This document shows positions 1,532-15,562 of a stretch of 27,605 nt of DNA, in pieces. Every line of letters starts with the position of its first letter. Position 1 is the first letter of the stretch. The position numbers and the translations under genes were made by a program. The DNA lies in IMG/VR virus record IMGVR_UViG_2534681674_000034, positions 1 to 27,605 of that record, one strand, 5' to 3'. Source of the DNA: a virus (Duplodnaviria > Heunggongvirae > Uroviricota > Caudoviricetes). Below the pieces are notes generated by a model. That model was not told the origin of the DNA and searched no databases. It saw nothing but the letters and a program-made list of their open reading frames with translations.

Positions 1532-1741
1532 TTAATTTGAATACAATGCAATTCTCGAGGACTGAAGTTTCTCGCAATTAAAATTTATCAGTTTTACTTT
1601 CTGCTCTCTGGAAACGCCTGCTTCTTTTTTACCTGAGAGCATTTTTTCGCATTCTGATTTCGTTAGTTTAGATTTTGAATATCTTGTCCAGTTAGTAGGA
1701 GTGCCACCTTCCTTTTCAATAGTGGCGGTAATTTTATACAT
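1532..1741 (-). CDS. ydaC: YdaC-like small protein, 69 aa
   Basis: Translation MYKITATIEKEGG... Start chosen at the ATG preceded by GGAGGT (5-6 nt spacing) rather than the longer track ORF. Confidence 0.65.
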   Translation of the reverse strand: MYKITATIEKEGGTPTNWTRYSKSKLTKSECEKMLSGKKEAGVSREQKVKLINFNCEKLQSSRIALYSN

Positions 1742-1984: not shown

Positions 1985-2794
1985 TTATTCTTCTGAATTA
2001 TCGATTACACTGTATTCCCCGGTTAATACAGAGGAGTCTGCCGGATCGATTGTCAGTGGTTCCTTTTCATCCATTGATACTGCACGCTGGATTTCAATTG
2101 AGACAGGCAGGTATTTAAACAGGCGACGAATAGCCGTTTTTTTTGCCATTTCTTCCCAGTGAGTTACCCACGGCCCGTTATTACCTGCCTTACTCTGGCT
2201 GCGCACCAGTTCAATCTGTTTGCGCGTCATAACTTCAAACTGAGTCCCTCCGTCTTTCAGTCTTGCGACAGCATAGACGTGGGTCACTGGTGCATCTTCG
2301 TTTTCTCCCGGGCGGTGTATTAACTTTTCATCAAGGCCAAATTCGAAGCTAAACTCGTCACCTTCACGGACAACACGGGCTGACAGGCTGGCGATTTGAC
2401 CAGAACGGCGAGCCAGATCAATCATGCCGCGATAGCCAATGATTAGCTGAACGTTCTTTTTACCGCTCTTTTCGTTTTTATTACCAAAAGGCAGTAAATA
2501 TGCGTGGCCAAGGGCGCTACCTGGCTCAAGGCCGAGCTGTGAACACTGTACGATTGCACTGACAAAACTCATAGTGTCACAGTTTCCTAACGCTGGAACT
2601 TTACGAATTTCTGTGGTGGCGATACGGATCATACGTTCAGCCGTCATATGGCGTGGAAGAGCTGCTGCCAGTTGCTCTTTCATTGATGGCTGGTTAATAA
2701 AACTAATCACGTCGTTATTTTTAACTGCTGCTGGTGCACGGTTTCCCTGAGTTTTTTGCAGATCGGCTTTTGCGATTGGTGGTTGCTTAGTCAT
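1985..2794 (-). CDS. recT: RecT single-strand annealing protein, 269 aa
   Basis: Translation from [41 protein letters not shown]... matches RecT from memory. AAGGAA SD 7-8 nt upstream of ATG at 2794. Start overlaps recE stop. Confidence 0.93.
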
Positions 2795-4253
2795 TTGCAT
2801 ATTCCTTAGCCCAGCGGGGCAGTGATAACGTCTTAATAGCTGGCCATTCATCGGTATTGAGGCAGTCAGCCAGGGTCCTCAGATTGCGGTGATATTCCTG
2901 CTGGCCTGCCAGTTTTGCTTCTTCGCCCATCATGAAAATCTCAATCGGGTAACGTCCGCATTCAACAGTTGTGCTGGCAACCAGAAAAACGAAAGTTGGC
3001 AGCACACCAAACTGTGCTTCATAACCGTCACTGTAGAATGCATCCTGAACGTGATAGCGGTAGTCGTAATAAGCCGTTTTGAATCGTTGAATATCCGCTG
3101 TGGTTTTCACGTCCATGATCCAGTGAAATTCAGGAATAATTTTGTCCGGACGGCACCGACACAAAATTCCTGTTTCCGGATCTTCCCAGTAAATTGATGA
3201 TTCAGCGTGTCCGGCGCTTTCCACAAGCCATTGACCCAGCGGCAAAGCCATAACGCTCTGATACATGAGTTCAATTTTCCGGCCTTCTTCGGCAGTGATA
3301 ACCGTTTTTCCTGTGTTTGCGCATTCCATCAGAAACGCTTTCTCTTCTTCTTTTCCGGCGTTTGTACGGCGGTTAAATTCAGGTGCTACGATAAAGCGGT
3401 TACTGAATTCTTCCGGTTCAAGTACACGGCAGTGGAAAGCGGTTCCTAAATCGAGCGTTTTTGTCTTTGTGGTGTCCACAGGGGCATTTTTACGCCACAA
3501 ATACAGCGCCGGAGTATCAGCAATGTCGTCGAGCTGAGACTTACTGACACCGGGTCCCGCGTGGTAATTCTCATTCGAAATTCCGTAATAAATACCAGGC
3601 TCTATGTCTCCTGCGATTACGGGATCTGCGACTTCGCCAGTTTCATCACTGCAATCGCGATGCAGATCGCTGCCAGCATTCTCATTGTGCGGATGTTCAG
3701 GGCCTTCCATTTCCTCCGGCTCTTTTTCCTGAGATTCATCCAGATTTTCTTCATTAAAGGTTTCCTGATACGTTGCGTCGCCCATCACCGCGCCACAGTC
3801 AGGACAGTTGCCGCCGCCAGCCTGACCGCAGGCGGTGCAAACTTTCTCCGTTTCCTGTTGTTGCACTACTGGCTCAGGCTGTTTCGTTTCTGGCTCGTTT
3901 TGTAACGCATTTTGGCTGTTTTGTTCCGCTTTCTGGTCGTTTTGTTCCGATTCGGGCTGGTTCTGGTTCACAGAATCGCGGGTTTCAATCCCCTTAACCC
4001 ATTTCGGATCATTCGGGTCGCTAATTCCGTCAACGAACTCACCGCGATGGACTGCCAGTATTTTGTCGGCATCAGGCTGGTTGATATTGGCTGCCTGCAT
4101 AATTTTGTTTACTTCGTCAGCGGTAACTTTTACCTGATTAACCGGATTTATCTGTGCCTGAGTATCCAGCGATTGTGTGTCCTGGCGATATTCAGTTGTA
4201 TCCTGTCCCATTGCTTCAGTCGTTGCCTGTTCATCTGCCATTGCGTCAGACGG
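2787..4253 (-). pseudogene. recE: recE 3' portion (exonuclease VIII C-terminal nuclease region), cut off from its 5' portion by an IS
   Basis: Reading frame is open from the IS boundary to the stop at 2787-2789. First in-frame ATG at 4241 (track ORF 484 aa). Translation continues the RecE sequence of the upstream fragment. Confidence 0.85.
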
Positions 4254-4295
4254 TGAACCGCCCCGGGTTTCCTGGAGAGTATTTTATCTGTGAAC

Positions 4296-5186
4296 TCAGG
4301 CTGCCAGATCATTATTTCCGATGGAAGCATAATAAGCTTTTTCTGCTTCTGCCGGAGGAATATGGCCCAGCCTTTCCAGCAATCGTCGATTGTTATACCA
4401 GTCCACCCACGTTAGTGTGGCCAGTTCCACTTCTGTCCGGTTTTTCCAGCTATTACGGTGTATTACCTCCGCTTTGTAAAGACCATTGATGCTCTCAGCC
4501 ATCGCGTTGTCATACGAGTCGCCAGTACTCCCTGTTGATGCCAGTAATCCGGCTTCCTTAAGCCGCTGCGTGTAGGCCAGCGATACATACTGAGAACCTT
4601 TATCACTGTGATGGATTGTGCCGGACGGCCGACGGGCCCACAACGCCTGCTCCAGTGCATCCAGCACGAATGTTGTTTCCATGGATGATGAGACCTGCCA
4701 TCCCACGATGTATCCGGCGAACACATCAATGATGAACGCCACATAAACGAAGCCCTGCCATGTGCTTACCCAGGTAAAATCAGCCACCCACAACTGGTCT
4801 GGACGTTCTGCCACGAACTGACGGTTTACGCGGTCGCATGCGGCAACGGCTTTCCGGCTGACGGTAGTGCGGACCTTTTTACCCCGGAGAACACCGGCAA
4901 GTCCCATAACTGCCATGAGACGTGCCACAGTGCATCTGGCCACTCTGATACCTTCCCGTAACAACTGACGCCAGACTTTACGCACACCGTATACCTGGTG
5001 ATTTTCATCGTATACGCGCTGTATCTCTTTCTTCAGCCAGTCATCGTGCTGCGCACGGGCACTGCGTTTATCCGGATGATGTCGCTGTTGCTGACAATGG
5101 TAATACGTTGACGGGGCAATATGCAGTTCGCTGCATACCGGTCCGACCCCGTACTGCTCACGCAGCTTATCCAGCAGTGGCATCAT
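4296..5186 (-). CDS. IS3-family transposase OrfB (DDE catalytic part), presumably made as OrfAB fusion by -1 frameshift
   Basis: 296-aa [19 protein letters not shown]... recognised as IS629-type OrfB. Overlaps orfA at GGAAAAAATGATG. Confidence 0.9.
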
Positions 5187-5509
5187 TTTTTCCAGAGGCG
5201 GTCGAACTCCGCCTTCGCAAAATAAGCGGAAGCCTGGCGAAGGATATCGTTACTGCGGCGCAGTTCACGATTTTCACGTTCCAGCTCTTTCAGACGCTGA
5301 CGTTCAGCGCTGGTGAGCCCACCATCACCGCCCCCGGTATCCCGCTCATGCTGGCGAACCCAGACACGCAGAGTCTCCGGCGTACAGCCAATCTTTGGGG
5401 CAATGGAACAAATTGCCGCCCACTGTGAGTCATATTCATCCTGACTTTCCAGAACCATACGAATCGCCCGCTGACGGACTTCGGGGGAAAAACGAGTATT
5501 TTTAGTCAT
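5183..5509 (-). CDS. IS3-family transposase OrfA (HTH part)
   Basis: 108-aa [26 protein letters not shown]... recognised as IS629-type OrfA. Ends in an A6 run where orfB begins. Confidence 0.9.
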
Positions 5510-5563
5510 CCTGTTTACCTCTTTCTCAGGGAGTTTAGTCTCCAGGATTTCCGGGGCGGTTCA

Positions 5564-6790
5564 CGGTTGTGATTTTTCCTCATTATTTTTTTCTTCTTCT
5601 GTTTCGCGTTTAGCAGCCAGTTCGCGGTTAACTTCTTCCAGGATATCTTTTTCCGGTGTATGTCGTGCAGCAGCGAGAGTTTCCTCGGTAGGGTTCTCGT
5701 GATCAGTCTCCGTTAAATAGGCGTTGATATACCCCTGAAGGCGTCCCGGGTAATGATAAAACTCAGGGTGTGCGCTCCGGATAAGTGCAAAAATAGCGGC
5801 GCGGGAATAATCCAGGATACCCGGGATTGCGCGAAGTGCTGCGGACCATTCTTTGAACGGACTTTCTTTCTTCCGGACGACTTCTTTTGCGCGACGATAA
5901 ACGCTGCCCGGAATTTCATAAATATTAAAATCCATCGGAAGTGTGGCCGCTGCAATCTCCACATCCAGCGTATCGAAGGTGTGTACTAAATTCGGATTGC
6001 GATCGGTTTTGTTCCCTCCACCGGCATTAGCACCGGAAGCCGTGCGGGTGATGCGTGAAACACGATTTCCTTTCATCCACTCTTTTGTCAGCAGACCGCG
6101 ATCGGTGTAGTCAGCGCCCAGGTATGCTTCGAAAAAAGCAGTCATTAGCCCTAGGCCTGAATTGCCAGGATTAGGGAAAACTTTGTCAGTATCACGCACC
6201 AGTTTGTGGAGATCGCGAATTTCCAGCGGATCGAGCAGGCTGGTTTTGTGGGAAACAGCCAGGGCAGTAACAGCTGGTAGTTCCTCAGCCCGTGCAATGT
6301 GTAATGCCTGGAGTTCGTCGCGTGAAACGTGCGTTACCGGTTTTTCGCTGCCGTGTTGAGCAAGCCAGCGAATGGGCAACTCCTGGCCAGAAATCGGGAG
6401 TAGCATATTCTCCTCAATCTCCGTCATGTCTTCGCCATTAACATTGGTGTTGTCAGTGCTGGCTGGTTTGCCCTGCGCAGAGGGTGAGGGCGCGATAAAT
6501 ACCATTGTGATGCCATCTTCCCCGCCTTTTTCGTAACGGTTGCAGAATTCCGTATCAAATACGCCTTCTGGCGGGAGGTCATCAACAACGGGCAAATTGA
6601 CGCGAACAGGTTTTTTGAAGTCATCTTCATCGTAGCCAGCATCGTCAATCGCAACAGCACCACGGGAGATGGCAATGGATAATTTTTTCGCTTCAGCCCA
6701 GTAAAAACCGCCTTTAATACCGAGACGTTTTCTTACTTTGTCATTTTTTGCTTCGTAATACAGTGGGTAAACTTGTTTATCGGTGCTCAT
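5564..6790 (-). pseudogene. recE: recE 5' portion (N-terminal ~409 codons), terminating at the TGA formed by the IS end
   Basis: Translation ...[45 protein letters not shown]... matches the RecE N-terminal region from memory. Stop codon is the first three bases of the IS inverted repeat. Confidence 0.85.
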
Positions 6791-6890
6791 TGTTTTTTAA
6801 CCTCAACTCAGATTAAAATTCGTTTGTTCAGTGAATAATCTTGCCGGATACACACTGTTCATAGCCTGCGCCATACGCAGGCTATTTCTT

Positions 6891-7166
6891 TCAGATTTCA
6901 CCTTTTAATTTCATTGCAATCAGAGTTGCCAGAAATTCGGCTTTTTTTTCTGCGGGCAGATTCTTTCCGGTATGCACCAGGCACATTTTTTTGACGCCTT
7001 CGTTAAGCGTTTTAACGTTGCCTGATGGACCGTCGATATCAACCACAGTGAAAGGGGTTTCTTTATTTTCTGTTTTAATCACGTAGCCAATACGCTTTCC
7101 TTCCAGGCTGACTTCGTGAACAATGTCATCAGTAGTAACAACAGTGGCTTCATAACTGGTAATCAT
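6891..7166 (-). CDS. racC: RacC-like protein, 91 aa
   Basis: Translation MITSYEATVVTTDDIVHEVSLEGKRIGYVIKTENKETPF... AGGAG SD upstream of ATG at 7166. Confidence 0.8.
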   Translation of the reverse strand: MITSYEATVVTTDDIVHEVSLEGKRIGYVIKTENKETPFTVVDIDGPSGNVKTLNEGVKKMCLVHTGKNLPAEKKAEFLATLIAMKLKGEI

Positions 7167-7240
7167 GTTTTTCTCCTTAATTAAGGTTGAGCGAATCCCT
7201 GCCATTGCTGGCATAAATTCAGTTTCGGATAGTCAGTTAA

Positions 7241-7411
7241 TTAAAGTTCGTGTGCCATCTGGTCTTTTTCGGCACAGATTTCACTACAATATTTTTTCAT
7301 TTCCGTCGTTGGTATAACTCCACGCATGAAATGAAGTGGTCTTGTAATGATTTTGCTTTCTTCAATTTCTTTATTGCAAAGGTGATAAGCACATTTTATT
7401 TTCTTAGTCAT
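7241..7411 (-). CDS. ydaE: YdaE-like small Cys-rich protein, 56 aa (below the 60-aa cutoff of the supplied ORF track)
   Basis: Hand translation [56 protein letters not shown]. Start ATG overlaps the kilR stop (TAATG). Confidence 0.65.
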   Translation of the reverse strand: MTKKIKCAYHLCNKEIEESKIITRPLHFMRGVIPTTEMKKYCSEICAEKDQMAHEL

Positions 7412-7632
7412 TACCATGACTCCGCCTTTACAGGTAAACCATCACGACCGAGGAAGACTTTAATCATGCAGTCAGAAATGCATGTTTTTGTAGTCAGGTT
7501 ACGAATATAAAGTTTTCGCTTTTTAATATTGTTTGCCGAGGCGATATATGTCCGACCTTCATGAAGAACATAATCGCCAGGAGTCACACACTGACGTGGT
7601 ATTTCATCAGTTACGAAGTGATGAGCAATCAT
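7411..7632 (-). CDS. kilR: Kil-type host-killing / cell-division inhibitor protein, 73 aa
   Basis: Translation [49 protein letters not shown]... recognised as KilR. GGAGA SD 6 nt upstream. Confidence 0.85.
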
Positions 7633-8205
7633 AATTATCTCCATTTTTACAAATGAATTTTGTCGATGCGGTGCCTGGTGCCTCCAGGTGACGTTAACCA
7701 GTTAACAATTAACGCCGGATACAGAGAATCCACCCATAACACTGTTTTTGGTTTTAACTGTTCCGCGTGCGCTTAGCCGCATTCACCGCATCACAAAATT
7801 CACTTTAAAAAGGGCGGCAGAGCAGTCACGGAGTAAAACTGATACCGCCAAACGTCACCAGAAAATTGATAACAGAGGGCGTTGCAGCGGGGTTGTCACT
7901 TAAGCGTATGGTCAACCTGACAACCCGGTGTCCTCAACGGGGGAAGGAATAACCCCGCCATACTTACCGCCGCGCCATTTCGCGGATTGCCACAACCGGA
8001 AGCGCACGGTCGACGAAAATTTAACGACAGGCTATCTATGAACCAGCTACCTCGCCGTGCGCTTTCGCGTTATGGTCTGACTTTTCAGGGAAATATCCTT
8101 TCAGTAAACTGTCAGTGCCGGATGCTCACCCGTGTCCGGCGCACGCACTCCACCTCACCCGTGGAGAACTACTTAATTACCAACCTTAGCTTCGTTGGTT
8201 AGCTA

Positions 8206-8424
8206 TTAACGCGGGTATGTAATCATTCTGGCAATGCTTAATGCCGCTGCTTTTTCCAGATTGGTGATATCCTGCTCCAGAGCGGACAGATTTTCAGCCT
8301 GCTTAGCCCTGGCTTCATTAGCCCATTTCAGATCCTGCGCTGCATTAATTTTCTGGCGCATCCACTCATAAAGTTCATCATCGGTATAGTCTGGCGAGAT
8401 GATGACGGGTTCTCGTTTCTGCAT
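8206..8424 (-). CDS. Hypothetical early-left-operon protein, 72 aa
   Basis: ORF with GAGGA SD 7 nt upstream. No family recognised. Confidence 0.5.
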   Translation of the reverse strand: MQKREPVIISPDYTDDELYEWMRQKINAAQDLKWANEARAKQAENLSALEQDITNLEKAAALSIARMITYPR

Positions 8425-8920: not shown

Positions 8921-8963
8921 AATCTAAAAGTATTTAGTTTTTCAGTCAAGATAAATCTAGATT
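8921..8963 (-). promoter_or_regulatory. PL-like leftward promoter with overlapping operator sites
   Basis: On minus strand TTGACT-N17-TAGATT. Operator-like AATCTAAAAGTATTTAG at 8921-8937 and perfect palindrome AATCTAGATT at 8954-8963. Confidence 0.5.
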
Positions 8964-9014: not shown

Positions 9015-9662
9015 TTATAAGTTGAACTGTACACCTTTTGCTACGGCAACAATTTTACACTCTGGTGTAAGTAAGGATGACTGATAGCGTGGATTGAGAG
9101 GGCTTAAATACACAAGCTTCCCATCAATAACTAATTTCTTTATAGTCATAGATGGTTCATTTTTAAGCGGATCCGGAACTATTACAGCGACGATGCTGCC
9201 ATTTTTATAACTTTCTCCTGGCCTTAGGATCACAGTAGCACCAACTGGGATACTCGGTGATCCTGATGGGTTATGCATTGTGTCATCAGGCATTGAAACG
9301 GCAAAATCACCTTCCTCGACATCAAAGAATGTGGTGATCCTATCGACATTTCCCATTGTTTTCTCTCCTTTTAAGATTAGGAAAGAAATCGCCTCACCCC
9401 ACGAAAGGTAGGGGATCTTGGTGCCTGAGGTACTTTGTACAAAAGATAATTCAGGAGACGATACTCCATATAGGAGATAGGACTCAGTAGTTCCTAATGC
9501 CTGGGCTAACTTACTTAGAGCTTTGCTACCTGGTTCGTTTAGATCTTTCTCCCAGTACCCTATAGTAACCCCAGTCACGCCTGAAAGCTTACCCAGTTCT
9601 ACTTGGGTCAGCCCCTTATCTTTTCTAAGTCTCTTAAGCCTGATGCCAAGGCTTTCCATCAT
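9015..9662 (-). CDS. CI-like prophage repressor (N-terminal HTH-XRE, C-terminal S24 LexA-like autopeptidase)
   Basis: Translation has an HTH region (GLTQVELGKLSGVTGVTIGYWE) and a C-terminal S24-like region. Start set at the first ATG (9662) with AGGAGA upstream; the track ORF starts at a TTG at 9674. Confidence 0.85.
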   Translation of the reverse strand: MMESLGIRLKRLRKDKGLTQVELGKLSGVTGVTIGYWEKDLNEPGSKALSKLAQALGTTESYLLYGVSSPELSFVQSTSGTKIPYLSWGEAISFLILKGEKTMGNVDRITTFFDVEEGDFAVSMPDDTMHNPSGSPSIPVGATVILRPGESYKNGSIVAVIVPDPLKNEPSMTIKKLVIDGKLVYLSPLNPRYQSSLLTPECKIVAVAKGVQFNL

Positions 9663-9689
9663 TTTCTCCTGCAAATTGAATATAAATTA

Positions 9690-15160: not shown

Positions 15161-15406
15161 ATTCATTACGATATGGGAATTCCCATATCGGGTAAAAACG
15201 GTTTGCGGTAAAGCGAGAGTTAAGTAGAATTGCTGCGGGTGCTTGAGGCTATCTGCCTCAGGCATGAACACCAAAAGGCAGATAGAGAAAAGCCCCAGTT
15301 AACATTACGCGTCCTGCAAGACGCTTAACATTAATCTGAGGCCCAATCTATGTCTCACAAATGTAGGTTAGCCTCTTACGCGCCGAAAGGCAAGGAGAAG
15401 CAGGCT

Positions 15407-15562
15407 ATGAAGCAGCAAAAGGCGATGTTAATCGCCCTGATCGTCATCTGTTTAACCGTCATAGTGACGGCACTGGTAACGAGGAAAGACCTCTGCGAGG
15501 TACGAATCCGAACCGGCCAGACGGAGGTCGCTGTCTTCACAGCTTACGAACCTGAGGAGTAA
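15407..15562 (+). CDS. hok: Hok/Gef-family type I toxin (HokD/RelF-like), 51 aa
   Basis: Translation MKQQKAMLIALIVICLTVIVTALVTRKDLCEVRIRTGQTEVAVFTAYEPEE. AAGGAG SD. ORF extends 19 codons further upstream in frame to an ATG at 15350. Confidence 0.85.
   Translation: MKQQKAMLIALIVICLTVIVTALVTRKDLCEVRIRTGQTEVAVFTAYEPEE

Follow-up and report, generated by a model that had tools for sequence, protein, structure and literature searches.

An IS629-family insertion splits recE and leaves recT intact in a Rac-site prophage of Escherichia coli

We found that recE is split in two by a complete IS629-type insertion sequence, with an intact recT behind it, in a 27,605-nt stretch of prophage DNA (IMG/VR record IMGVR_UViG_2534681674_000034; this whole stretch is called the window below). 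Judged from the nucleotide sequence, the recE of the window is a disrupted gene as it stands, and it can no longer yield full-length RecE. RecET, the basis of ET recombineering, is silent in K-12. Expression of recET is normally fully repressed, and sbcA mutations switch it on (PMC3945230, PMC10956419). The insertion is best regarded as an ordinary case of gene disruption by an IS, in an E. coli lineage rich in such elements, and not as a gain-of-function allele.

RESULTS

The original prediction had placed a 1310-bp IS3-family element at 4254..5563 inside recE, with transposase genes co-directional with recE. Boundaries, repeats, domains and pseudoknot all agree with this, and the IS genes and recE all lie on the minus strand. 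The element is intact, and its terminal inverted repeats and nucleotide identity mark it as an IS629/IS1203 isoform. The repeats are imperfect (45 nt, 76% complementary), starting with TGAACCGCCCC and finishing with GGGGCGGTTCA, and the ends TGAACC...GGTTCA fit the TG...CA pattern of the IS3 family. The two reading frames of the element overlap: orfA (5183..5509, minus strand; 108 aa) has a good Shine-Dalgarno sequence and encodes an HTH_Tnp_1 domain (Pfam), and orfB (4296..5186, minus strand; 296 aa) encodes HTH_21 and rve DDE domains (Pfam) and scored 312 bits against the NCBIfam IS3 transposase profile transpos_IS3. At the orfA/orfB overlap, an A6 run lies beneath an ALIL pseudoknot, a −1 frameshift signal (5112..5228, minus strand; Rfam RF01497, 121.5 bits where the gathering score is 50 bits, E 1.9e-31). 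The element therefore has the overlapping orfA (HTH) and orfB (DDE/rve) with programmed −1 frameshifting that characterize the IS3 family.

At the nucleotide level, the IS matched copies in E. coli 2013C-4974 perfectly (100% identity) and O26:H11 copies at 99.9%. It also aligned without gaps over 1310 bp, at 96.2% identity, to a copy in the O157:H7 strain 9.1_Anguil, annotated by PGAP as "IS3-like element IS1203 family", the full-length match to IS629/IS1203 being to this PGAP-labelled genome copy rather than to the ISfinder reference. In length (1310 bp), ALIL-type −1 frameshift, TG...CA repeats and 3-bp duplication, the element resembles the IS629/IS1203 of EHEC and other E. coli, but unlike the O157:H7 IS1203-family copy it is the isoform nearest (99.9 to 100%) to O26:H11-type and other non-O157 copies. 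Two earlier reports attribute many gene inactivations in O157 to IS629 (PMC9943667, PMC3271280), and disruption of prophage genes is typical of this element.

The element lies directly after Pro409 of the reconstructed RecE, corresponding to P392 of K-12. One copy of the target-site duplication CGG, at 5564..5566, provides the Pro409 with which the N-terminal recE fragment ends, and the other, at 4251..4253, lies on the 'recE side, where the minus strand reads CCG (Pro). Read along the minus strand, the recE'/IS junction at the 5564/5563 boundary is GAAAAATCACAACCG then TGAACCGCCC, and the IS/'recE junction at the 4254/4253 boundary is GGGGCGGTTCA then CCGTCTGACGCAAT. In strain CAU16175, the empty site has a single CGG (GTCAGACGGTTGTGA). 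When the IS and one CGG were deleted in silico, a 2691-bp ORF encoding an 896-aa RecE was restored, which aligned colinearly and without gaps to the intact recE of strain CAU16175, with 6 nucleotide mismatches and 1 amino acid difference. Given the empty site with a single CGG and the gap-free restored ORF, the duplication is real and not a 1-in-64 coincidence, and the full-length IS is flanked by a direct repeat in the 3 to 4-bp range of the IS3 family. The alignment to an uninterrupted recE, which had been proposed as a check, thus confirmed the insertion point and showed that the fragments are contiguous parts of one gene; they map to NF007259 positions 1-402 and 407-877, as expected if one recE was split in two. 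The reading of the CGG/CGG flanks as a duplicated Pro codon of recE was likewise verified against the CAU16175 empty site.

The N-terminal fragment (5561..6790, minus strand; 409 aa) contains the Exonuc_VIII N-terminal domain (Pfam PF06630; NF007259 positions 1-402 of 877). Its coding part, 6790..5564, closes with CCG, and the TGA that follows (5563..5561) is formed by the three outermost bases of the IS on that side, so that the fragment stops on an IS-derived codon, as had been anticipated. The C-terminal fragment ORF (2787..4241, minus strand; 484 aa) comprises residues 414-896 of the reconstructed 896-aa RecE, or approximately 397-866 in K-12. Its start, ATG 4241..4239, is in frame (CCG TCT GAC GCA ATG) and separated from the IS by 12 nt, and its TAA stop (2789..2787) overlaps the recT start, ATG 2794..2792 (ATGACTAA); a C-terminal fragment with an in-frame ATG at 4241 that runs into an overlapping recT is thus what the DNA contains. 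The two fragments matched NF007259, the NCBIfam exodeoxyribonuclease VIII equivalog, separately with 628 bits (N-terminal) and 947 bits (C-terminal). A full-length RecE, i.e., a single uninterrupted ORF reaching the NF007259 cutoff of 1269 bits, was not found, and only the reconstructed sequence forms one ORF.

Residues 223-484 of the C-terminal fragment matched PDB 3H4R over 262 residues (about 97% identity, E 8e-179), and the fragment includes the complete crystallized PD-(D/E)XK nuclease domain. The stretch with D748, D759, and K761 (K-12 numbering), which we take to be the catalytic residues of the RecE nuclease (3H4R), is identical between the fragment and K-12 RecE. The downstream recT (1985..2794, minus strand; 269 aa) is intact, has its own AAGGA Shine-Dalgarno sequence and a Pfam RecT domain, and scored 466.6 bits against the NF007351 equivalog (cutoff 296), identifying its product as a RecT single-strand annealing protein. 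The RecE nuclease domain alone has been reported to be genetically sufficient (PMC11611040), and a RecE fragment of aa 588-866 to be functional together with RecT (PMC3945230), in agreement with the earlier statement that C-terminal RecE fragments retain activity. Like the sbcA alleles and the engineered N-terminal truncations RecE588 and RecE 564-866, the window has a RecE fragment with all known requirements for exonuclease activity and recombination next to recT (PMC11611040, PMC3945230), the difference being that this fragment exceeds the minimal active ones by about 190 residues. However, what defines an sbcA allele is expression, seen as exonuclease VIII activity and recBC suppression, and no expression signal was evident at this locus.

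The chromosomal context, ttcA-intR-xisR-rcbA-like-ralR/RalA-recT-recE-racC-ydaE-kilR, agrees with that of the Rac prophage of K-12. The nuclease domain is 97% identical to that of K-12 over residues 588-866, recT is near-identical, and both prophages have the same ATGACTAA recE stop/recT start with the annotated 8-nt recE/recT overlap. The two nevertheless differ in several respects: the reconstructed RecE of the window has 896 aa compared to 866 aa in K-12, its N-terminal 590 residues are mosaic relative to K-12 (28 to 91% identity by segment), recE is interrupted in the window but not in K-12 Rac, and the window prophage has a CI-type S24 repressor and late genes, whereas K-12 Rac has RacR and a decayed late region. 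A candidate early-left (pL-like) promoter, TTGACT-17-TAGATT (8921..8949, minus strand; a 9/12 consensus match only), is located downstream of the CI-type repressor gene (9015-9674, minus strand; HTH_3 and Peptidase_S24 domains) and a terminator-like hairpin (8995-8975). Gene order and the consensus match suggest that it is probably the native promoter of the recE'-IS-'recE-recT operon.

The allele is rare. A segment of 12,790 nt of the window was identical to contig AEZJ02000032.1 of GCA_000194215.2, and 6 contigs from NCBI and Logan assemblies encode exactly the 409-aa truncated product. Searches of 5,426 complete E. coli genomes with the whole feature and a 200-bp junction probe found the insertion allele in none, and the nearest allele among them was uninterrupted (99.8% identity). 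The top high-coverage match, O121 RM8352, was ruled out as having the same insertion, its IS being located between intR and xisR and not in recE. In Z1323CEC0001, recE has an independent IS629-family insertion at codon ~511 with a 4-bp duplication (CTGT), and in PK8241 and NZRM4169, RecE-family/3'-5' exonuclease genes are likewise split by IS629-family insertions; PGAP annotates the split genes of all three as pseudogene fragments. These cases share with the window the IS family, its orientation to the gene and the split into pseudogene fragments, while insertion sites, alleles and prophages are different. IS629-family elements have thus hit other recE-type genes independently. A co-directional bias of IS629-family copies near recE-type genes was considered as a sign of selection and rejected: the similarity search joins same-strand pieces only and thereby selects co-directional cases, so the shared orientation is uninformative.

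DISCUSSION

The reading that we consider probable is that the IS629-type insertion simply destroys full-length RecE and leaves 'recE-recT under the control of the early-left operon, which CI represses. An IS629-family element would have transposed into codon 409 of recE in a lambdoid prophage at the Rac site (ttcA), generating the usual 3-bp duplication, and 'recE and recT would have stayed in the leftward early operon (DUF1391 gene, DicF, kilR, ydaE, racC, recE, recT, ralR, xis, int), which the CI-type S24-peptidase repressor is expected to hold off. Substantial expression of 'recE-recT would most likely require derepression of the prophage, with transcripts that traverse the IS. Such read-through from the IS into 'recE is possible because no terminator-like site was predicted between orfB and 'recE on the minus strand. 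A weak transposase promoter may contribute slight constitutive transcription of 'recE-recT. ATG 4241 is expected to be a poor start for translation of the fragment, given its weak Shine-Dalgarno sequence: the predicted anti-SD pairing is −2.4 kcal/mol, whereas the native starts of recE, recT, and orfA reach −6.0 to −7.1. A conserved GGAGG-ATG at 3710 (K-12 M561), inside the C-terminal fragment, could allow internal initiation giving a nuclease-domain protein. No unusual RNA structure was predicted around the junction (z = 0.88). An OrfB-'RecE fusion by stop read-through was also considered and rejected; ATG 4241 is in frame with orfB, but an in-frame TAA three codons past the orfB TGA (4298..4296) precludes it.

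Three other explanations were weighed against this disruption with retained operon control. That a draft assembler misplaced an IS copy into recE is barely credible: the sequence comes from a draft assembly, assemblies often break at IS copies and two contigs do end at the IS, but a perfect 3-bp target duplication surrounds a full-length IS with both ends, and the 409-aa product, which needs the IS-derived TGA, recurs in independent NCBI and Logan assemblies. It is also unlikely, though less markedly so, that Rho-dependent or other polarity, caused by the early stop codon and the 1.3-kb insert, knocks out the whole recombination module, with 'recE and recT not meaningfully expressed even on induction and RecET function lost. 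Early termination of recE translation at TGA 5563..5561, the treatment of equivalent alleles as pseudogenes by PGAP, and the poor ribosome-binding site at ATG 4241, which would leave 'recE largely untranslated, all fit such a loss. However, orfA starts 51 nt past the recE' stop with a strong Shine-Dalgarno sequence, and translation of orfA and orfB spans nearly the whole IS, leaving only short untranslated gaps for Rho loading; moreover, recT has its own Shine-Dalgarno sequence and an intrinsic terminator was not predicted.

An sbcA-like activation, in which the co-directional IS would drive an active truncated RecE together with RecT constitutively, by read-through or from an outward or hybrid promoter, seems to us quite improbable. 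The C-terminal fragment has the whole nuclease domain, sufficient for function in the reports cited above, recT is intact, and the lack of a terminator-like site after the IS would permit read-through. IS3-family elements can have an outward −35 in the IRR, IS3 itself has an outward promoter, and neighboring genes can be activated by members of the family (PMC9330008, PMC8860574). On the other hand, the searchable literature yielded no description of an outward promoter for IS629. Consensus scanning of the minus strand between 6790 and 2787, a poor predictor of weak promoters, yielded no sigma-70-like site of at least 9/12 and no convincing outward promoter; the best class found in the IS right end was a weak 8/12 promoter-like site at 4307..4278 (minus strand). 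A hybrid promoter formed by the IS end and the flank (TTCACC, 16 to 17 nt, GATGAA or ATGAAC) was unconvincing, with only 2 to 3 of 6 positions matching in the −10: the flank supplies no −10 that could partner the IS end, and the transcripts of a hybrid promoter would begin downstream of ATG 4241. The near absence of a Shine-Dalgarno sequence at this ATG and the restriction of the allele to a few assemblies, with no sign of spread or selection, also argue against activation. The more specific proposal of a natural sbcA-like allele, in which low constitutive IS transcription and initiation at ATG 4241 or 3710 would yield an active nuclease-domain protein and RecT in uninduced lysogens, we hold to be highly improbable. 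We saw no sequence evidence that the insertion switches on the downstream recombination genes.

Under the disruption that we favor, the locus adds one more IS629-family prophage gene disruption to an IS-rich E. coli lineage and is, as it stands, of little importance. If the fragment and RecT were expressed constitutively, it would gain modest importance as a natural hyper-recombination variant in a wild strain, with a bearing on prophage mosaicism and on IS-mediated operon rewiring; an sbcA-like allele would equip the lineage with a recombineering-type pathway that does not depend on RecA and could accelerate prophage mosaicism. With its duplication intact, the insertion is potentially reversible by excision, and the locus offers a convenient natural substrate for studies of precise IS629 excision.

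Insertion of an IS629-family element into recE

All genes concerned here are carried on the minus strand. A 1310-bp element (4254..5563), assigned to the IS3 family on its ORFs, domains and inverted repeats, was flanked by CGG at 4251-4253 and at 5564-5566. In silico deletion of the element and one CGG gave a 2691-bp ORF, which could be aligned base for base with the PGAP-annotated intact recE of Escherichia coli CAU16175; the two differ at 6 nucleotide positions and in one amino acid. A single CGG was found at the empty site of the CAU16175 gene, as expected for a target duplication. Against the NCBIfam exodeoxyribonuclease VIII equivalog, the N-fragment covered positions 1-402 and the C-fragment 407-877, and the insertion was located directly after Pro409 of the 896-aa RecE (Pro392 in the 866-aa K-12 RecE). 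The alignment thus confirmed the insertion point and showed that the fragments are contiguous parts of one recE.

The N-fragment (6790..5564) ended with the residues EEKSQP, followed by a TGA (5563..5561) made up of the initial three bases of the IS end. Past the element, the recE frame read CCG TCT GAC GCA ATG, the ATG at 4241 being the first in-frame start, separated from the IS by 12 nt. From here, a 484-aa ORF ('recE) extended to the TAA at 2789..2787, which overlaps the recT start at 2794..2792 (ATGACTAA); the annotated recE/recT overlap of 8 nt equals that in K-12 and CAU16175. Every structural statement of the original prediction, including the IS-supplied stop, the in-frame ATG and the recT overlap, was therefore borne out. 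Since recE was not present as one uninterrupted ORF above the cutoff, we class the locus as a disrupted recE in which the nuclease-domain ORF is intact.

Between imperfect terminal inverted repeats (45 nt, 76% complementary, TGAACCGCCCC...GGGGCGGTTCA), the element carries two overlapping minus-strand ORFs, orfA (5509..5183, 108 aa, HTH_Tnp_1 domain) and orfB (5186..4296, 296 aa, HTH_21 and rve domains). The transposase scored 312 bits against the NCBIfam IS3-family model, and an ALIL frameshift pseudoknot (Rfam, 5112-5228, minus strand, 121.5 bits versus a gathering score of 50) was detected, with an A6 run at the orfA/orfB overlap beneath it. Copies 100% identical to the element are present in other E. 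coli genomes, those in O26:H11 strains are 99.9% identical, and an O157:H7 copy labelled "IS3-like element IS1203 family" by PGAP aligned gaplessly at 96.2% identity. In each feature compared, the element agreed with the IS3 family and the IS629/IS1203 isoform. Given these ORFs, domains, the pseudoknot and the identity to known copies, "IS629-like" is an accurate label and the element looks transposition-competent.

The nuclease domain and recT are preserved

In the C-fragment, the segment around D748, D759 and K761 (K-12 numbering), which we take to be the catalytic residues of the RecE nuclease, was identical to K-12. The whole crystallised nuclease domain (PDB 3H4R, E 8e-179, ~97% identity over 262 residues) lies inside this fragment, and recT is intact (equivalog score 466.6 bits versus a cutoff of 296). 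It has been shown that the RecE nuclease domain, residues 564-866, is a genetic substitute for full-length RecE, although full-length RecE outperforms it in linear-linear recombination (PMC11611040), and that a lambda-expressed RecE fragment from aa 588 together with RecT is recombination-proficient (PMC3945230). With a complete nuclease domain, an intact recT and this literature on fragments, the idea that a C-terminal RecE fragment can retain function is sound at the protein level.

We also observed that the reconstructed allele (2787-6790) is strongly mosaic relative to K-12 recE (5787-8387 of the K-12 locus, L011). Identity to K-12 RecE was 28% for aa 1-100, 91% for 101-260, 36% for 261-400, ~65% for 401-587 and 97% for 588-866.

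Operon context and expression of 'recE-recT

The lambdoid prophage that makes up the window occupies the ttcA/Rac site and has the leftward gene order DUF1391 gene, DicF, kilR, ydaE, racC-like, recE'-IS-'recE, recT, ralR, xis and int. While the repressor of K-12 Rac is RacR, this prophage instead encodes a CI-type protein (9015-9674, minus strand) with CI/LexA-like HTH and Peptidase_S24 domains. Downstream of its gene, on the same strand, are a terminator-like hairpin (8995-8975) and a candidate promoter, TTGACT-17-TAGATT (8949-8921, 9/12 consensus match). Because of the CI/LexA-like S24 repressor followed by the hairpin and promoter-like site, the prophage looks SOS-inducible. In K-12, recET stays fully repressed in the absence of sbcA mutations (PMC3945230, PMC10956419), and by analogy we infer that recE here sits in a repressed early-left operon.

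The original prediction proposed that the insertion could activate recE-recT in the manner of sbcA. Alleles are assigned to this class by their expression and phenotype, and a new promoter is its sole sequence proxy. The IS reads in the recE direction, a scan of the minus strand detected nothing resembling a terminator between orfB and 'recE, and an outward -35 in IRR is a known feature of IS3-family elements, IS3 itself having an outward promoter (PMC9330008, PMC8860574). However, a consensus scan of the minus strand from 6790 to 2787 gave no site of at least 9/12; a laxer scan yielded nothing better than 8/12, including one site within the right end of the IS (4307..4278). No acceptable -10 was present in the IS end and flank, and a hybrid promoter at the IS end would start transcription downstream of ATG 4241. 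Moreover, anti-Shine-Dalgarno pairing at this ATG was only -2.4 kcal/mol, compared to -6.6, -6.0 and -7.1 kcal/mol for the native starts of recE, recT and orfA, respectively, and the junction RNA had no unusual structure. Expression of 'recE-recT is the weak link of the activation idea. We consider activation by the IS improbable, and a natural sbcA-like allele, which would be of moderate interest if true, slightly more so.

The best-supported reading, and probably the correct one, is an ordinary disruption in which 'recE-recT depends mainly on early-left derepression. Full-length RecE is lost through the insertion, and derepression would allow transcription across the translated IS into 'recE and recT; 'recE would probably be translated poorly, and recT from its own ribosome-binding site. 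Complete polar loss of the recombination module is unlikely. A possible natural internal translation start is ATG 3710, within a conserved GGAGGAAATG (3701-3712, minus strand) that is identical in K-12. It encodes residue 591, corresponding to K-12 M561, and lies directly upstream of the 564-866 nuclease domain, with a short SD-ATG spacing.

Occurrence of the allele and comparable insertions

The window was identical to contig AEZJ02000032.1 of GCA_000194215.2 over 12,790 nt. Six contigs encode the exact 409-aa N-product, a truncation that requires the IS-derived stop; a second NCBI assembly and Logan SRA assemblies are among their sources. A search of 5,426 complete E. coli genomes did not find this IS/recE junction in any of them. 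On this record, the allele is genuine and confined to a small lineage; an assembly artefact is extremely improbable.

IS629-family disruption of recE-type genes has arisen independently elsewhere. In Z1323CEC0001 (locus L006, 3573-4882), a K-12-type recE is interrupted by such a copy at codon ~511, and the duplication there is 4 bp long (CTGT). Copies in PK8241 (L003, 3001-4310) and NZRM4169 (L013) split RecE-family / 3'-5' exonuclease genes, which are related to recE but lie in other lambdoid prophages. PGAP annotates the split genes of all three strains as pseudogene fragments. IS629-family insertion in a prophage gene is a very familiar kind of event. Separately, the closest intact recE allele (99.8%) belongs to CAU16175; this strain instead carries a related IS3-family copy (L001, 1901-4450; 93.7% identical) in the prophage integrase gene, in opposite orientation.

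Other prophage features

Further prophage content comprised replication genes, a Q-like antiterminator, three tRNAs, a NanS-p-like esterase, lysis genes and a terminase. A DicF sRNA homolog (7812-7863, minus strand; Rfam RF00039, 76.7 bits) is located in the early-left operon upstream of kilR/ydaE/racC/recE; DicF of K-12 belongs to the Qin prophage, not Rac. The late-region layout (18776-23339, plus strand) resembles that of Stx phages: after the antiterminator come tRNA-Met(cat), tRNA-Arg(tcg) and tRNA-Arg(tct) (19558-19809), a TerB-domain ORF (20504-21007) in the place expected for stx genes, STnc100 (21179-21348) and the NanS-p-like sialate esterase (21486-23339). A RalA antitoxin sRNA (1557-1735, plus strand, 225 bits) lies opposite ralR, and a sok-like antitoxin RNA (15237-15412, plus strand, 120 bits) points to a hok/sok-type module within the nin region.
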